Of a DNA stretch of 64,000 nucleotides, positions 1 through 54,670 are shown in pieces. Below the pieces are notes generated by a model, which did no database searches, was not told the origin of the DNA, and saw only the letters and a program-made list of their open reading frames with translations. How positions within the stretch are numbered: the first letter of the stretch is position 1; each line of letters begins with the position of its first letter. The position numbers were made by a program, and so were the translations under genes. Source of the stretch: Escherichia coli (GTDB taxonomy: Bacteria; Pseudomonadota; Gammaproteobacteria; Enterobacterales; Enterobacteriaceae); assembly GCF_003334335.1 (NCBI RefSeq), contig NZ_QOWQ01000011.1; one strand, given 5' to 3'.

Positions 1-456
1 AGTACGGATTTGGGGACGAAAAACACATCGTCGTTTGATTACGGAACCAAATCCACGAATAACACCGGGGCGCATACCCATAGTATTAGCGGGACTGCAA
101 ATAGTGCCGGTGCGCACCAACACAAGAGTTCCGGTGCATTTGGTGGCACGAACACGAGCATTTTCCCTAATGGTTATACCGCGATTTCAAATCTAAGCGC
201 GGGGATTATGAGCACAACAAGCGGTAGTGGCCAGACTCGTAATGCAGGGAAGACATCATCAGATGGTGCTCATACCCACTCGCTGTCCGGCACTGCTGCA
301 AGCGCAGGCGCACATGCACATACTGTCGGTATTGGTGCTCATACGCACTCCGTTGCGATTGGCTCACACGGACACACCATCACCGTTAACGCTGCTGGTA
401 ACGCGGAAAACACCGTCAAAAACATCGCATTTAACTATATTGTGAGGCTTGCATAA
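1..456 (+). CDS. stf: Phage side tail fibre protein, C-terminal part (5' end outside window)
   Basis: Open frame from base 1 with no upstream stop. Gly/Ser/Thr-rich with repeated GAHTHS / GAHAH / GSHGH motifs, like the His-x-His motifs of T4 gp37 and lambda Stf distal fibres. Its stop overlaps the start of the next gene. Confidence 0.7.
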
Positions 457-1037
457 TGGCATTCAGAATGAGTGAACAACCACGGACCATAAAAATTTAT
501 AATCTGCTGGCCGGAACTAATGAATTTATTGGTGAAGGTGATGCATATATTCCGCCTCATACAGGTCTGCCAGCAAACAGTACCGATATTGCACCGCCAG
601 ATATTCCGGCTGGCTTCGTGGCTGTTTTCAACAGTGATGAGTCATCGTGGCATCTTGTTGAAGACCATCGGGGTAAAACAGTTTATGACGTGGCATCAGG
701 GGACGCGTTATTTATTTCTGAACTCGGCTCATTACCGGAAAATGTTACCTGGTTATCCCCGGAAGGGGAGTTTCAGAAGTGGAACGGCACAGCCTGGGTG
801 AAGGATACGGAAGCAGAAAAACTGTTCCGGATCCGGGAGGTGGAAGAAACAAAAAACAGCCTGATGCAGGTAGCCAGTGAGCATATAGCGCCGCTTCAGG
901 ATGCTGTGGATCTGGAAATCGCAACGGAGGAAGAAACCTTGTTGCTGGAAGCCTGGAAAAAGTATCGGGTATTGCTGAACCGTGTTGATACGTCAACTGC
1001 ACAGGATATTGAATGGCCAGTAGCACCTATAGGGTAA
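456..1037 (+). CDS. tfa: Phage tail fibre assembly protein
   Basis: 193 aa ORF starting at the ATG that overlaps the fibre gene stop (TAATG). The sequence resembles Tfa-family chaperones of lambdoid and P2-like phages. Confidence 0.75.
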
Positions 1038-1895
1038 ATTCGTAATGATTACCTAAATACGTTATTCTTTTGTTCAAAAAGTGATTTTGCTATAGATAGG
1101 GAGTATGTTCTTGGATTAAGAATAAAAATCGCCATGAAAGAGCTTCATGGCGAGTACATAAACGTACAAAATGTGATGAAAGTAGAGTGGCGTAAGCCAC
1201 TATATTAAGATGTGACAATAGCGAAGAAAAGTAAATAACATTTTATGGACGTTTAATTGTTAATTATAAAAACTAGAGTGCCCGATATTGTTTACCTTGC
1301 TTTAAAATAATGTACTCAAACCAAATTTTTGAGCTAAAAGCTCAAATAATATAAATGCAATAATAATGTTTAATAAGACAATTAGCTTGCTTTGTATTTT
1401 CATTTCGGAATACTGTTAAGTAACTTTGATGACCCTAACAATAGATCGGAATTTTCTTAGAGTCAATGGTCACTGTTTTTGCTTGCAAAGCAAATGTTTT
1501 GGTGGTTATAAGTTGTCTTAATATAGTCACGCATGCAACTTGTTCCATGCGGAGATTAAAGATTGGAATATAACGCTAAGATGGAATTAAATTACATTTG
1601 CAATAATCAATTTATTATTACTCAATAATTACCGATATTATTATTGTAAATTAATCATTAGAGTGCAAAAAGAAATGTAACGGCAAAATAAGAGGACGAT
1701 AGCTGAGAAAAAAGCGTGCTTTCCCAATCTGGGGCAAATCACGTCTGAATGACACCTGAAAACAGGTGGTAGCCTCAAGAAGGCTTGGAATATTCTTCTT
1801 TAATGTTATGTAATTCATTGATTTTTCGTGTACGATTTAAAGACATTTATTCCAAGAAAAATTTTTAACTCTTTGATTTTTCGACTCTGTATCAT

Positions 1896-1957
1896 CGGTC
1901 TCGAAAACCGGAGTAGGGGCAACTCTACCGGGGGTTCAAATCCCCCTCTCTCCGCCA
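1896..1957 (+). tRNA. 3' fragment (about 62 nt) of tRNA-Ser(CGA) (serU-like): anticodon stem, variable arm, T arm and acceptor 3' strand ending CCA. Not a complete tRNA.
   Basis: CGGTCTCGAAAACCGGAGTAGGGGCAACTCTACCGGGGGTTCAAATCCCCCTCTCTCCGCCA matches the 3' two-thirds of E. coli serU as I recall it. The 5' acceptor strand and D arm are missing; upstream sequence is unrelated AT-rich DNA. Confidence 0.7.
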
Positions 1958-2541
1958 CTTTATCAATGACTTATCTCCCGACTTCCCGCCTTGCTTTTCC
2001 TAAACAGAACAATCGTAGAATATTCTTGAAGGGTTAGATCGTCACTGTTTTCTGTTCGATACTGTGACATTCAGCACTTGATTCGCTATGGATCTGACAG
2101 GAAGGTTTTGAGCGAAAATTTGCAGTTATTCAGTCGTTTTCTTATCGGTCACCATTATTCTTTTAGACATTGATCCTACAAAGCTGCCGCAAAGTTGGTG
2201 GTGGGAACTGAAGTTGCGTAGAGAAGGGGTCAATACCCGGAGGCAAACATGGGCTGGCAAAAGTGTAGCGGTATTAGGCGCAGCTATTTAGCCTAGTTAT
2301 GTTTTATGAAAACTTGATATCATATAAGTGTCTTACTTATTGGCTGTAAATAAGTTTTTCCTAAGGAATTGTTTCTTGAGTATCATTTGTAACTGTAACG
2401 GAATTTATAATCCTTTGCTTTATTGTTACGGTATTTTTTATCACACCCTATTTTTTATGTGGTTTTTTATACTGAAGTTTGGCAAAGTGAACTTTATATG
2501 CATATACTTCATCCTGGTTTCAGTTAAGTTGGGTGGATGAT

Positions 2542-3285
2542 ATGGCAACTACATGTTCAGTTATATTGATTTTGGAGTCCTTTGATGTTTATTTCGGAAA
2601 AGAGAGTGTGTTTCTGGAGAGAGGTTCATCTGTACTTGTCGACTCTAGCTCTAGAGATTTTTTCCTGACATATCCTGAAAGAGTGATAGTGGCGGATTTT
2701 GGCGCTGAGTTTATTAGTCGCTATTTGAAAGCTAATAACTTAAGGGATATTTCTGATTGTAGGGAATATCCATCTTATTTAAAAATAAACTTTGCTGACT
2801 TCAGTTTAATTAAAGGATTAATTAGTTGGGCTAATCACTGTGCTGAATACATAGAAATTTTTGATGAGTCTATTGCTTTTACATGTCTCTCTGCATTTTC
2901 TTCTGAAAAACAATTTGGAGTATTTCTGTTTGAATGTTTGAAAAGCACAGGGGCTAAAGTTAAAACGATTATTCATACGGATTTATCTGCACCATGGCGT
3001 CTTAAGGATATATCATCAAGATTATATCTCAGCGAAAGTTTACTAAAGAGGAAATTGAAAGAAGAGGGGGTATCATTCAGTAAGATCATACTTGATGAGA
3101 GGATGCAAATGGCTGAATATTTACTCAGCACTCGTTGTTATCCTATTAGTAAAGTAGCTAAGGTCTGTGGTTATGCCAGTGTCTCATACTTTACTTATGT
3201 ATTTAGACGTTATTTTGGTGTTTCTCCAAGTCAATACTCTCAGAGCAGTTCAGAAAGTAAAATTCTTACTCACCAGGGAATCTGA
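2542..3285 (+). CDS. AraC/XylS-family transcriptional regulator, AppY/EnvY/Rns-like, low GC
   Basis: C-terminal helix-turn-helix region (ISKVAKVCGYASVSYFTYVFRRYFGVSPSQY) and overall similarity to prophage-borne AppY. ATG at 2542 preferred over the GTG at 2533 used by the ORF track. Confidence 0.75.
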   Translation: MATTCSVILILESFDVYFGKESVFLERGSSVLVDSSSRDFFLTYPERVIVADFGAEFISRYLKANNLRDISDCREYPSYLKINFADFSLIKGLISWANHCAEYIEIFDESIAFTCLSAFSSEKQFGVFLFECLKSTGAKVKTIIHTDLSAPWRLKDISSRLYLSESLLKRKLKEEGVSFSKIILDERMQMAEYLLSTRCYPISKVAKVCGYASVSYFTYVFRRYFGVSPSQYSQSSSESKILTHQGI

Positions 3286-3289
3286 TCAT

Positions 3290-3790
3290 TGTTCTTGCCC
3301 CCTTATTTCCAGACAGGGGGTGTATCTTAAGTTAACGTTACCCGCTGACGTCGATATTCTCGCGGAGAGCGATAACCCAACGCACTGTGCGGATGGTTTT
3401 CATTGTAATGTTCGATCGCCACTGCAAGATTATGCAATGCCGTTCTTACATTCGGTTTCGGCATGAACGCGATGTAGTCTTCCTTCATCGTTTTCACGAA
3501 CCTTTCTGCCATTCCATTACTCTGAGGACTGCTGATTGCCGTTGTGCAGGGCTCCAGATTCAACTCTCTGGCGAACTGCCATGTTTCATGCGCTCTATAC
3601 GCTGAACCGTTATCTGTCAGCCACTGGATGGACTGTTCCGGTACTTTATCGCCAAAGCGTTTTTCTATCGCTCCTAACATGACATCCTGCACTGTCGCTT
3701 TATCGTAACCTCCCGTGCTTGCGGCCCAGTCTATGGCTTCACGATCGCAACAGTCCAGGGCGAACGTAACACGCAGTTTTGAATCGCCAC
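3290..3790 (-). mobile_element. IS3-family (IS2-like) insertion sequence remnant: one terminal inverted repeat plus the 3' part of the transposase gene
   Basis: Terminus TTGCCCCCTTATTTCCAGACA at about 3291-3311 resembles the IS2 right inverted repeat. The adjacent minus-strand ORF encodes a DDE transposase C-terminus. The element is cut off near 3780-3790 by a second IS end. Confidence 0.55.
3327..3692 (-). pseudogene. Truncated IS3-family transposase OrfB (C-terminal about 120 aa only)
   Basis: Translation ends ...[20 protein letters not shown], the conserved C-terminal signature of IS3-family DDE transposases. The N-terminal catalytic region is absent. Confidence 0.6.
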
Positions 3791-4080
3791 GGGTTTAACA
3801 GACACCTCAGAGTCATTTAAGATGGCTTAAAGAGAGGTGCCCATGAGCGGTAAGCGTTATCCCGAAGAGTTTAAAACTGAAGCAGTCAAACAGGTTGTTG
3901 ATCGCGGTTATTCTGTTGCCAGCGTTGCAACACGTCTCGATATCACCACCCACAGCCTTTATGCCTGGATAAAGAAGTACGGTCCGGATTACTCCACTTT
4001 TTCATCAAGCCAATCCGCCCACCACTGCATCATTTCTCTGCGCTTATCGAGATACTGAGCGTGGTTGTAAATTCAGCTAA
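3781..4080 (+). mobile_element. Second IS3-family insertion sequence remnant: left end plus truncated orfA
   Basis: TGAATCGCCACGGGTTTAACAGACACC resembles IS3-family left ends (TGA...GTTTAAC.GACAC, as in IS600). It is followed by an OrfA-like helix-turn-helix ORF and ends abruptly before the tI/sib hairpin. Confidence 0.5.
3837..4058 (+). pseudogene. Truncated IS3-family transposase OrfA (helix-turn-helix domain intact, C-terminus degenerate)
   Basis: N-terminus MSGKRYPEEFKTEAVKQVVDRGYSVASVATRLDITTHSLYAWIKKYG is a typical OrfA helix-turn-helix. No leucine zipper, frameshift window or orfB follows. Confidence 0.6.
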
Positions 4081-4088
4081 CCCAGTGT

Positions 4089-4136
4089 GTTGACAAAAAA
4101 TTAGCGCAAGAAGACAAAAAAATCACCTTGCGCTAA
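4089..4136 (-). terminator. Lambda tI/sib-like hairpin adjacent to the att P arm
   Basis: 10-bp inverted repeat TTAGCGCAAG / CTTGCGCTAA with a 16-nt loop, followed on the minus strand by TTTTTTG. It is the reverse complement of the lambda sib/tI sequence as I recall it. Confidence 0.55.
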
Positions 4137-4138
4137 TG

Positions 4139-4300
4139 CTCTGTTACAGGTCACTAATACCATCTAAGTGGTTGATTCATAGTGACTGGATATGTTGTGT
4201 TTTGTAGCATTATGTAGTCTATTTTTTAGACTGAATAAATTATAAGTCGTTGATATTAATTGTTTTTACCGTTTCACATTCAACTTTTTTATACTAACTT
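4139..4300. other. attR: Prophage attR (lambda-type P arm, core CTTTTTTATACTAA at about 4284-4297, bacterial B' arm)
   Basis: TCTGTTACAGGTCACTAATACCATCTAAGT... closely matches the lambda P arm; it diverges toward the core. Core and downstream CTTGAGCGAAACGGGAAGG match the E. coli attB side. Confidence 0.75.
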
Positions 4301-12540: not shown

Positions 12541-12637
12541 CCTGATGCGCTACGCTTATCAGGCCTACATTTTCTCCGCAATATATTGAATTTGCGCGGT
12601 TTGTAGGCCGGATAAGGCGTTCACGCCGCATCCGGCA
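12541..12637. repeat. Composite REP unit (two opposed REP palindromes around a shared spacer)
   Basis: CCTGATGCGCTACGCTTATCAGGCCTAC ... CAATATATTGAATTTGC ... GTAGGCCGGATAAGGCGTTCACGCCGCATCCGGCA. Confidence 0.85.
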
Positions 12638-12693: not shown

Positions 12694-13662
<969 letters not shown>

Positions 13663-13799
13663 TTAACCTGCCAATATTGAGGATACAAACTATTTTCTTC
13701 TACCTCTAAAGGACGATGCACGCTATGCCTCCCTGATGATGTATATCAAAGTAAAACCGCCATTTTCCCTTATTCTGTAGCGAAATAGCACGATCATGA

Positions 13800-13823
13800 C
13801 GCTATATACATGATTACATAGCG
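13800..13823. promoter_or_regulatory. Candidate ModE binding site in the moaA promoter
   Basis: CGCTATATACATGATTACATAGCG, of the form CGnTATATA-N-TAtAGCG. Confidence 0.45.
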
Positions 13824-13883
13824 AAAGTGTGGATGGTAAAAATCTCATTTACACGCTAGTATCGGCATAACCACTAAACACTC

Positions 13884-13998
13884 TAGCCTCTGCACCTGGG
13901 TCAACTGATACGGTGCTTTGGCCGTGACAATGCTCGTAAAGATTGCCACCAGGGCGAAGGAAGAAATGACTTCGCCTCCCGTATCTGGAAAGGTGTAC
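13884..13998 (+). ncRNA. Moco (molybdenum cofactor) riboswitch-like leader of moaA; boundaries approximate
   Basis: A conserved Moco RNA motif is known directly upstream of moaA in E. coli. Placed by position; I did not check the fold. Confidence 0.5.
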
Positions 13999-14988
13999 AT
14001 GGCTTCACAACTGACTGATGCATTTGCGCGTAAGTTTTACTACTTGCGCCTGTCGATTACCGATGTGTGTAACTTTCGTTGCACCTACTGCCTGCCGGAT
14101 GGCTACAAACCGAGCGGCGTCACCAATAAAGGCTTTCTTACCGTCGATGAAATTCGCCGGGTTACGCGCGCCTTCGCCAGTCTGGGCACCGAAAAAGTGC
14201 GCCTGACAGGAGGAGAGCCGTCTTTACGCCGCGACTTTACCGATATCATCGCCGCTGTGCGGGAAAACGACGCTATCCGCCAGATTGCGGTCACAACCAA
14301 TGGTTACCGTCTGGAACGCGATGTGGCGAGCTGGCGCGATGCGGGACTTACTGGCATTAACGTCAGTGTCGACAGTCTGGACGCCCGCCAGTTTCACGCT
14401 ATTACCGGGCAGGATAAATTCAACCAGGTCATGGCAGGGATTGATGCTGCATTTGAGGCCGGTTTTGAGAAGGTCAAAGTCAATACCGTGCTGATGCGTG
14501 ATGTTAATCATCACCAGCTCGACACCTTTCTGAACTGGATCCAGCATCGCCCTATCCAGCTGCGTTTCATCGAACTGATGGAAACGGGCGAGGGCAGCGA
14601 GCTCTTCCGTAAGCATCACATCTCTGGTCAGGTTCTGCGTGACGAGCTACTGCGTCGCGGCTGGATCCACCAATTACGTCAACGCAGCGACGGTCCCGCG
14701 CAAGTCTTTTGCCATCCAGATTACGCCGGAGAGATTGGCCTTATCATGCCGTATGAAAAAGACTTCTGCGCCACTTGCAACCGCCTGCGCGTTTCCTCCA
14801 TTGGTAAACTCCATCTCTGCCTGTTTGGTGAAGGCGGCGTTAACCTGCGCGATCTGCTGGAAGACGATACCCAGCAACAGGCGCTGGAAGCGCGTATTTC
14901 AGCGGCGCTGCGGGAGAAGAAACAGACCCATTTCCTGCATCAAAACAACACCGGTATTACGCAAAACTTATCGTACATTGGCGGCTAA
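13999..14988 (+). CDS. moaA: GTP 3',8-cyclase (radical SAM)
   Basis: Start set at [31 protein letters not shown] (329 aa). Confidence 0.95.
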
Positions 14989-29244: not shown

Positions 29245-29341
<97 letters not shown>

Positions 29342-34494: not shown

Positions 34495-34617
34495 CTGGAC
34501 GTAGCGTAAACGCCTGATCCGTCCAACGGTTCGGATTTTGTAGGCCTGATAAGACGCGGTAGCGTCGCATCAGGCATCTGTTGCCGGATGCGGCGTAAAC
34601 GCCTTATCCGTCCTACG
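34495..34617. repeat. REP cluster between ybiC and ybiJ
   Basis: Several REP palindromes (GTAGGCCTGATAAGACGCGGTAGCGTCGCATCAGGC, CCGGATGCGGCGTAAACGCCTTATCCG). Confidence 0.8.
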
Positions 34618-54571: not shown

Positions 54572-54670
54572 CCTGATGCGCTACGCTTATCAGGCCTACG
54601 CAGTACCTGCAATATATTGAATCTGCAGGACTTTGTAGGCCGGATAAGGCGTTAACGCCGCATCAGGCAT
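54572..54670. repeat. Composite REP unit, third copy in the same orientation as 12541-12637
   Basis: Same architecture and spacer (CAATATATTGAATCTGC). Confidence 0.85.

Follow-up and report, generated by a model that had tools for sequence, protein, structure and literature searches.

The DNA upstream of moaA in Escherichia coli raises the question of which regulatory elements act on the gene and how they are layered. In the 64,000-nucleotide stretch of E. coli DNA analysed here (the window), a preliminary description had placed a ModE-like palindrome about 175 bp upstream of the moaA start, followed by a leader in which the Moco RNA motif was expected, and had given the region approximate boundaries of 13800 and 13998. 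The gene concerned is the following.

13999-14988, plus strand: moaA coding sequence (GTP 3',8-cyclase), first gene of moaABCDE, from the list of open reading frames and RefSeq (WP_001295301.1).

The start of its translation (31 residues) includes the radical-SAM CxxxCxxC motif. The control region in front of it is identical to that of K-12 moaA and does not merely resemble it: window 13603-14011 corresponds to K-12 MG1655 816648-817056 with 0 differences, so that every base matches across the yvcK-moaA intergenic region and into the start of moaA, and the element itself carries no difference at all. RefSeq annotates the identical sequence with uvrB, divergent yvcK (ybhK), moaA, moaB, moaC, moaD, moaE, and ybhL, and the K-12 gene order uvrB / yvcK(ybhK) / moaABCDE / ybhL is that of the window; the same annotation has a "molybdenum cofactor riboswitch" at the equivalent of window 13867-14011. 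All but one of 5426 complete E. coli genomes (5425) contain segment 13600-14100, 5256 of them with at least 99% identity. Of the 5438 matching places, two lie on plasmids and the others on chromosomes, and some genomes have two places. Window 13800-14011 is almost certainly the native E. coli control region of moaABCDE, the operon for molybdopterin/molybdenum cofactor synthesis, working in layers. This control region is already fully described, and the analysis adds nothing new to it.

The transcriptional layer can be placed from published distances. The Fig. 2 legend of Regulski et al. 2008 (PMC2408646), after Anderson et al. 2000, gives the moaA start sites as S1 (+1) and S2 (-87). According to the same paper, which cites Anderson et al. 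2000 for this exact sequence, S2 is FNR-dependent, S1 is activated by molybdate-ModE, and the stretch from S1 to the start codon is 131 nt long and mediates repression when Moco is made. Since 13999 minus 131 is 13868, S1 is placed near 13868, and three features of the DNA can be listed.

13736-13749, no strand assigned: FNR-like site ATGAT-GTAT-ATCAA for the distal, anaerobically induced promoter S2, agreeing with TTGAT-N4-ATCAA at 9 of 10 positions.
13771-13781, plus strand: distal promoter S2, candidate -10 hexamer TATTCT at 13771-13776 and start at about 13781 (±~3 nt), from the published distance and the TTATTCTGTAGCGAAA block conserved in four enterics.
13857-13868, plus strand: proximal promoter S1, candidate -10 hexamer TAGTAT at 13857-13862 and start at about 13868 (±~3 nt), from the published distance and the CACGCTAGTATCGGCATAACCAC block conserved in four enterics.

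A strict sigma-70 consensus scan of 13600-14100 returned no promoter, and the hexamers were therefore assigned by eye together with the published distances and the conserved blocks. The S1 -35 hexamer, also read by eye, is a weak TGGTAA; the absence of a strict consensus at S1 is as expected for an activator-dependent promoter. For FNR, the pattern alone is not significant, with 5 matches in the 64-kb window against 2.4 expected. The site is nevertheless retained because it is conserved and suitably positioned, pattern statistics alone being insufficient: it is kept in Escherichia albertii, Citrobacter, and Enterobacter (alignment columns 101-113) and lies about 38-42 nt upstream of the S2 start deduced above. 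Its centre is at -38.5 relative to the derived 13781, compared with -41.5 for a class II site, so either the derived S2 start is about 3 nt off or the spacing is atypical. With the support of the literature, 13736-13749 is taken as the putative FNR site of S2. Layered control upstream of moaA, as the preliminary description had it, agrees with the ModE-activated S1, FNR-dependent S2, and 131-nt Moco-responsive leader described in PMC2408646. That description omitted the FNR/S2 layer and the CsrA input discussed below, and the region extends upstream to about 13736.

A mobile element has entered this intergenic region in one strain. In E. coli strain 774, a urinary isolate, an IS4-like ISVsa5 lies between yvcK and moaA (L124:1279-2487), with its transposase gene oriented as moaA. 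The insertion is equivalent to a position near window 13721, some 15 nt before the FNR-like site, and leaves the FNR site, the ModE palindrome, and the riboswitch intact.

Between the two promoters lies the palindrome.

13800-13823, no strand assigned: ModE operator palindrome CGCTATATA-CATGAT-TACATAGCG, supported by the consensus match, shuffles, conservation, the modA control, and literature.

The arms CGCTATATA (13800-13808) and TACATAGCG (13815-13823) are each 9 nt long, complementary at 8 of 9 positions, and separated by a 6-nt spacer; theirs is the sole inverted repeat reported in 13650-14010. The distance of about 175 bp in the preliminary description is exact, as 175 nt (13824-13998) lie between the 3' edge of the palindrome and the moaA start codon, whose A is at 13999, the centre being 187.5 nt upstream of the ATG. 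The E. coli ModE consensus, in the form quoted in PMC545781, is ATCGNTATATA-N6-TATATANCGAT, and the pattern used for scanning was the consensus core CGNTATATA-N6-TATATANCG with 16 specified positions. The palindrome has 1 mismatch to these 16 positions, or 4 to the 20 positions that include the outer AT/AT, and it is the single match in the 64-kb window at up to 3 mismatches.

Because the region is AT-rich intergenic DNA, such a match might be a chance AT-rich inverted repeat, or a TATA-rich promoter-like stretch without ModE function, and once 3 mismatches are allowed at least one match does appear in 12 of 100 window shuffles. The actual match has only 1 mismatch, however, a level reached in none of 100 dinucleotide-preserving shuffles of the window. 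A scan of K-12 792000-818000 with the same pattern served as a positive control and gave exactly two sites, the modA operator and the moaA site. The modA operator CGTTATATTGTCGCCTACATAACG, 20-43 nt before the modA ATG in K-12, has 2 mismatches, so the moaA palindrome is nearer to the consensus core than a bona fide operator. Written as arms and spacer, the operator of modABC, which encodes the molybdate transporter, CGTTATATT-GTCGCC-TACATAACG, is a palindrome of the same type as CGCTATATA-CATGAT-TACATAGCG, with the same 6-nt spacer. At modA the ModE site covers the promoter and start region, and its effect is repression. Unlike that operator, the moaA site would occupy about -68 to -45 relative to S1, immediately before the weak -35 hexamer, and here ModE activates (PMC2408646).

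Conservation bears on the same question. In an intergenic alignment of the E. coli window with Escherichia albertii, a Citrobacter, and an Enterobacter, the conserved islands are the FNR-like half-sites, the TTATTCTGTAGCGAAA block, both ModE arms, and the CACGCTAGTATCGGCATAACCAC block. The E. albertii ModE site is the same as that of E. coli; the Citrobacter site, CGCTATGTA-CAAGAT-TATATAGCG, has 1 mismatch, and the Enterobacter site, CGCTATGTA-TAAAAG-TACATAACG, has 2. The spacer is thus free to vary among the enterics (CATGAT, CAAGAT, TAAAAG) while the arms are kept, the distance from the site to the S1 -10 block is the same in the three other species, and the off-consensus position shifts between the arms (TATATA/TACATA, TATGTA/TATATA, TATGTA/TACATA). 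Constrained arms, a variable spacer, and a moving mismatch are the pattern expected for a site read by a dimeric protein. Both arms are thus kept in three further enterics with a fixed spacing to the S1 -10 block, and activation of S1 by ModE is itself reported in PMC2408646; a chance origin is therefore extremely improbable. The reading of 13800-13823 as a ModE operator, which has the E. coli-type features that can be tested in silico, is supported. The 64-kb window does not contain modE. K-12, whose moaA region is identical, has it about 22 kb upstream (793856-794644), and the source strain very likely has the gene too.

Downstream of the palindrome, the leader carries the RNA layer. The check named in the preliminary description, a covariance-model search with the Rfam Moco motif, returned a significant match rather than none: RF01055 matches 13867-14011 on the plus strand with 103.6 bits (gathering threshold 36) and E = 1.1e-24, covering model positions 1-135 of 135 without truncation, and it is the sole Rfam match in 13550-14150 even at E <= 1. 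The Moco motif expected in the leader is therefore present at full length, and the RefSeq riboswitch has the same coordinates. Of the approximate boundaries, the start at 13800 is indeed the first base of the palindrome, but the end at 13998 falls about 7-13 nt short, since the RNA, with its outer P1 pairs and the flank of the model, runs to 14005-14011. The parts of the RNA are as follows.

13867-14011, plus strand: Moco RNA motif (RF01055, Molybdenum/Tungsten riboswitch aptamer), aptamer and built-in expression platform, from the covariance model and RefSeq.
13878-13883, plus strand: P1 5' strand (ACAC-u-C), from the pair map of the Rfam alignment.
13886-13922, plus strand: P2 hairpin with an internal loop 13889-13891 / 13917-13919 (UCU/UUU), from the Rfam alignment, non-canonical pairs, and covariation.
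13924-13949, plus strand: P3 hairpin (GUGACAAU...AUUGCCAC), from the Rfam alignment.
13952-13977, plus strand: P4 hairpin with a GAAA tetraloop cap at 13963-13966 and a GGA motif at 13959-13961, from the Rfam alignment and pair map.
13978-13988, plus strand: P5 mini-hairpin (CC...GG), whose 3' strand starts the purine tract, with the second GGA at 13987-13989, from the Rfam alignment and pair map.
13990-13996, plus strand: Shine-Dalgarno core AAGGUGU, of which 13992-13996 (GGUGU) is the P1 3' strand, from the pair map.

The window sequence has canonical bases at 34 of the 41 consensus pairs. P1 is formed by the pairs 13878-13996, 13879-13995, 13880-13994, 13881-13993, and 13883-13992, and the outer pairs 13869/14005, 13870/14004, and 13872/14002 extend it just past the AUG. 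The Shine-Dalgarno core lies 3-9 nt upstream of the AUG, and the ribosome-binding site is described as sitting inside P1 (PMC2408646). The same paper locates a tetraloop receptor in the P2 bulge, and the non-canonical UCU/UUU loop of P2 in the window is in the place of the expected receptor and matches that description. The loop of P3 has an 11-nt insertion relative to the RF01055 model; the presence of P3 assigns the RNA to the Moco class and not to the proposed tungsten-cofactor class. One A.C mismatch in P3 (13927/13946) is A-U in Citrobacter and G-C in Enterobacter. The RNA is on the same strand as moaA, directly upstream of it and overlapping its start, and moaB-moaE come next.

At the 5' end of the leader, directly after the conserved ATAACCAC, an Enterobacter MAG has a 17-nt insert (L079:1402-1418) relative to E. 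coli and E. albertii, and Citrobacter sp. FP75 has a 24-nt insert after the same conserved block (L058:1705-1728). The Citrobacter insert, AATGTACTCGACGTATGACGAGTA, could form a small hairpin (TACTCG...CGAGTA). Both inserts lie between the presumed S1 start and P1, which indicates that the outermost pairs of Rfam 'P1' are unconserved even within the Enterobacteriaceae.

The single-sequence minimum free energy (MFE) fold of 13867-14011 (-42 kcal/mol, z = -1.5) differs from the consensus fold, which has an energy of -26.6 kcal/mol on this sequence. Failure of such a prediction to find the consensus fold is usual for junction-rich riboswitches with tertiary contacts. The MFE fold was dropped as a test of the aptamer, as thermodynamics alone misses it, and the covariance model and covariation were used instead. 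In the MFE fold, the Shine-Dalgarno region 13991-13997 pairs with UGCACCU at 13891-13897, in the P2 5' strand, rather than with P1, and AGCC at 13885-13888 pairs with GGCU at 14001-14004 just past the AUG. With these pairings the Shine-Dalgarno sequence is predicted to be occluded in a non-aptamer fold too, at a z of -1.5 that does not distinguish the fold statistically; such occlusion may be linked to the need for CsrA in moaA translation.

Homologues give the consensus fold its comparative support. A scan for the invariant 3' core GCCTCCC-N5-TGGAAAGG, with one genome per species, found at least 120 loci in many phyla. All 14 of the gammaproteobacterial loci tested have full-length RF01055 matches of 68-103 bits, and the moaA ATG is recognisable 10-13 nt before the end of the match in 8 of the 14, as in the window. 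In a MAFFT alignment of 15 gammaproteobacterial sequences, standard pairs are formed in 92.3% of cells; sliding the 3' partners by 1-3 columns lowers this to 30-45%. The predicted partners have a covariation score of 0.409, slid partners at most 0.097, and none of 500 shuffles reaches 0.409. Compensatory changes on both sides occur in 11 of the 26 pairs, including 4 of the 8 pairs of P4; the pairs of P2 also covary (helices 2-4 of the alignment), and the P5 segment is invariant in 15 homologues. P3 was left out of these counts owing to a one-column register shift between the enteric and Vibrio rows. RF01055 RNAs of other bacteria resemble the moaA leader in their P1-P5 architecture, their GAAA tetraloop, and an invariant 3' core, GCCUCCC...UGGAAAGG, and the gammaproteobacterial ones lie directly before moaA, whose ATG falls 10-13 nt short of the 3' end of the match, like that of the window. 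Many RF01055 RNAs elsewhere differ in having terminator platforms, in being arranged in tandem, or in lacking P3 (the proposed tungsten-cofactor class) (PMC2408646). As judged from sequence and covariation, the leader is a member of RF01055 and has every feature of the family that can be tested in silico.

The DNA layer has a much narrower range than the RNA. In the Aeromonas, Vibrio, Aliivibrio, Shewanella, and Psychromonas loci, the closest ModE-like sequence ahead of the moaA riboswitch is 4-7 mismatches away from the pattern. Among the matches listed from the at least 120 loci, 119 Moco-RNA instances were searched for a palindrome with up to 3 mismatches in the 360 nt preceding the aptamer, and the E. 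coli-type ModE palindrome was present at 3 Enterobacteriaceae loci only, a count that is a lower bound because the E. coli-type pattern could miss divergent ModE motifs in other phyla. In this sample of 119 instances among the matches listed, then, the ModE layer appears confined to the Enterobacteriaceae and the riboswitch appears ancient. Counted from the S2 start, the palindrome would also occupy about +20 to +43, and molybdate-ModE bound there could activate S1 and at the same time be a roadblock to transcription from S2, switching between the promoters rather than adding to them. It is unlikely, if worth stating, that the ModE layer is such a lineage-restricted overlay in front of an ancient riboswitch and that ModE, as a roadblock to S2, switches promoter usage.

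How the RNA would act is suggested by the position of P1. The 131-nt stretch from S1 "precisely encompasses" the Moco RNA (PMC2408646). In the same study a translational fusion driven by lacUV5 showed more than threefold repression on induction of the moa operon, and repression in E. coli was lost in a mutant with P3 disrupted and regained in a compensatory mutant. The overlap of P1 with the Shine-Dalgarno sequence, outer pairs that reach past the AUG, and the absence of a terminator point to sequestration of the Shine-Dalgarno sequence in the aptamer's own P1, as proposed in PMC2408646. Premature transcription termination, intrinsic or Rho-dependent, would be a different main route of control; it is used by other Moco RNAs, which have terminator platforms (PMC2408646), and blocked translation of a leader-proximal open reading frame can, in general, secondarily expose Rho sites. 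A terminator scan of 13600-14100 found no terminator-like hairpin with a U-run, however, and the P1 3' strand overlaps the Shine-Dalgarno sequence with the AUG inside the Rfam match. The published repression was, moreover, measured with lacUV5-driven translational fusions (PMC2408646), and it is very unlikely that the riboswitch works mainly by termination.

With sequestration of the Shine-Dalgarno sequence as the preferred mechanism, the layers can be put in order. At the DNA level, two weak sigma-70 promoters would serve the operon: the distal S2 (~13781) would be activated anaerobically by FNR at about 13736-13749, and the proximal S1 (~13868) by a molybdate-loaded ModE dimer on 13800-13823, just upstream of the S1 -35. 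Every transcript would then carry the leader of about 131 nt, which would adopt the Moco aptamer fold with its five helices. At high levels of Moco, or of a close pathway product, ligand binding would stabilise this fold and lock P1, and with its 3' strand (GGUGU, 13992-13996) being the Shine-Dalgarno core and its outer pairs running past the AUG, initiation at moaA would be blocked; the Moco leader would be a translational OFF switch. CsrA supplies an opposite input: PMC7652899, citing Patterson-Fortin 2013, places two CsrA sites within the aptamer and has CsrA expose the Shine-Dalgarno sequence and activate moaA translation. The leader has exactly two GGA motifs, at 13959 in upper P4 and at 13987 in the P5/Shine-Dalgarno tract, and these are likely the CsrA sites. 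Bound to two aptamer sites, most likely these, CsrA would remodel the RNA, exposing the Shine-Dalgarno sequence and activating translation.

The E. coli OFF riboswitches of thiM (TPP) and btuB (adenosylcobalamin) are established examples of the same logic, in which a ligand-stabilised fold sequesters the Shine-Dalgarno sequence. The moaA aptamer differs from these in fold and ligand, its Shine-Dalgarno sequence lies in the aptamer's own P1 rather than being taken up by a separate anti-Shine-Dalgarno helix, and its aptamer also takes a protein input, from CsrA (PMC7652899).

An alternative is that the leader is a conserved structured RNA with no Moco binding of its own, through which a Moco-binding protein or another trans factor represses. 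Direct Moco-RNA binding is undemonstrated, as Moco is too unstable (PMC2408646), the identity of the effector metabolite was still called unknown in 2024 (PMC10845959), and CsrA is a precedent for a protein that binds within the aptamer (PMC7652899). CsrA as described there activates and does not repress, however, and Regulski et al. 2008 found no protein factor and showed that Moco and its tungsten analogue are discriminated (PMC2408646). The size and architecture are also those of an aptamer, with five helices, a GNRA tetraloop and receptor, and a junction that is the most conserved part, and the RNA occurs in many phyla (at least 120 loci matching one 15-base core pattern). Repression by a protein in place of the ligand is therefore distinctly improbable, and ligand-stabilised closure of P1 remains the preferred reading.

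Away from the control region, the window strain appears to differ from K-12 in carrying prophage DNA some 9.5 kb upstream of the element, presumably at the lambda attachment site. Window 1-4283 has no counterpart at the K-12 position, and colinearity begins at window 4284, which is K-12 807329, between ybhC and ybhB; this junction is presumably the phage-lambda attachment site. Stretches 100% identical to 1-4283 in other E. coli are annotated as phage tail, tail fibre assembly, transposase/integrase-core, and an AraC-family regulator, and at least 80% of the stretch is present in 117 genomes only. From its sequence, 1-4283 resembles the right end of a prophage inserted at the ybhC/ybhB site; E. 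coli strain E2865 also has a prophage at attB-lambda. A full-length Rfam RF02111 'IS009' RNA is found at 799-997 on the plus strand (218 bits; gathering threshold 117), inside this prophage- or IS-like stretch. Three copies of Rfam ES036 (CssrF) are present on the minus strand at 12561-12602, 29265-29307, and 54592-54634 (41.6-43.4 bits; gathering threshold 37.6), and naRNA4 (CssrE) is present at 34543-34613, also on the minus strand (78.4 bits). The ES036 and naRNA4 copies are short dispersed repeat-type RNAs. The ES036 copy at 12561-12602 is just downstream of uvrB and yvcK, and its E. albertii equivalent is L036:2300-2341.

The locus serves as a positive control, in that a known operator and a known riboswitch were placed to within a few bases from the raw sequence. 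For the organism, moaABCDE is a classic case of one operon on which four signals converge: FNR conveys oxygen, ModE conveys molybdate, the RNA aptamer conveys the end-product cofactor, and CsrA brings in the global carbon and physiological state.
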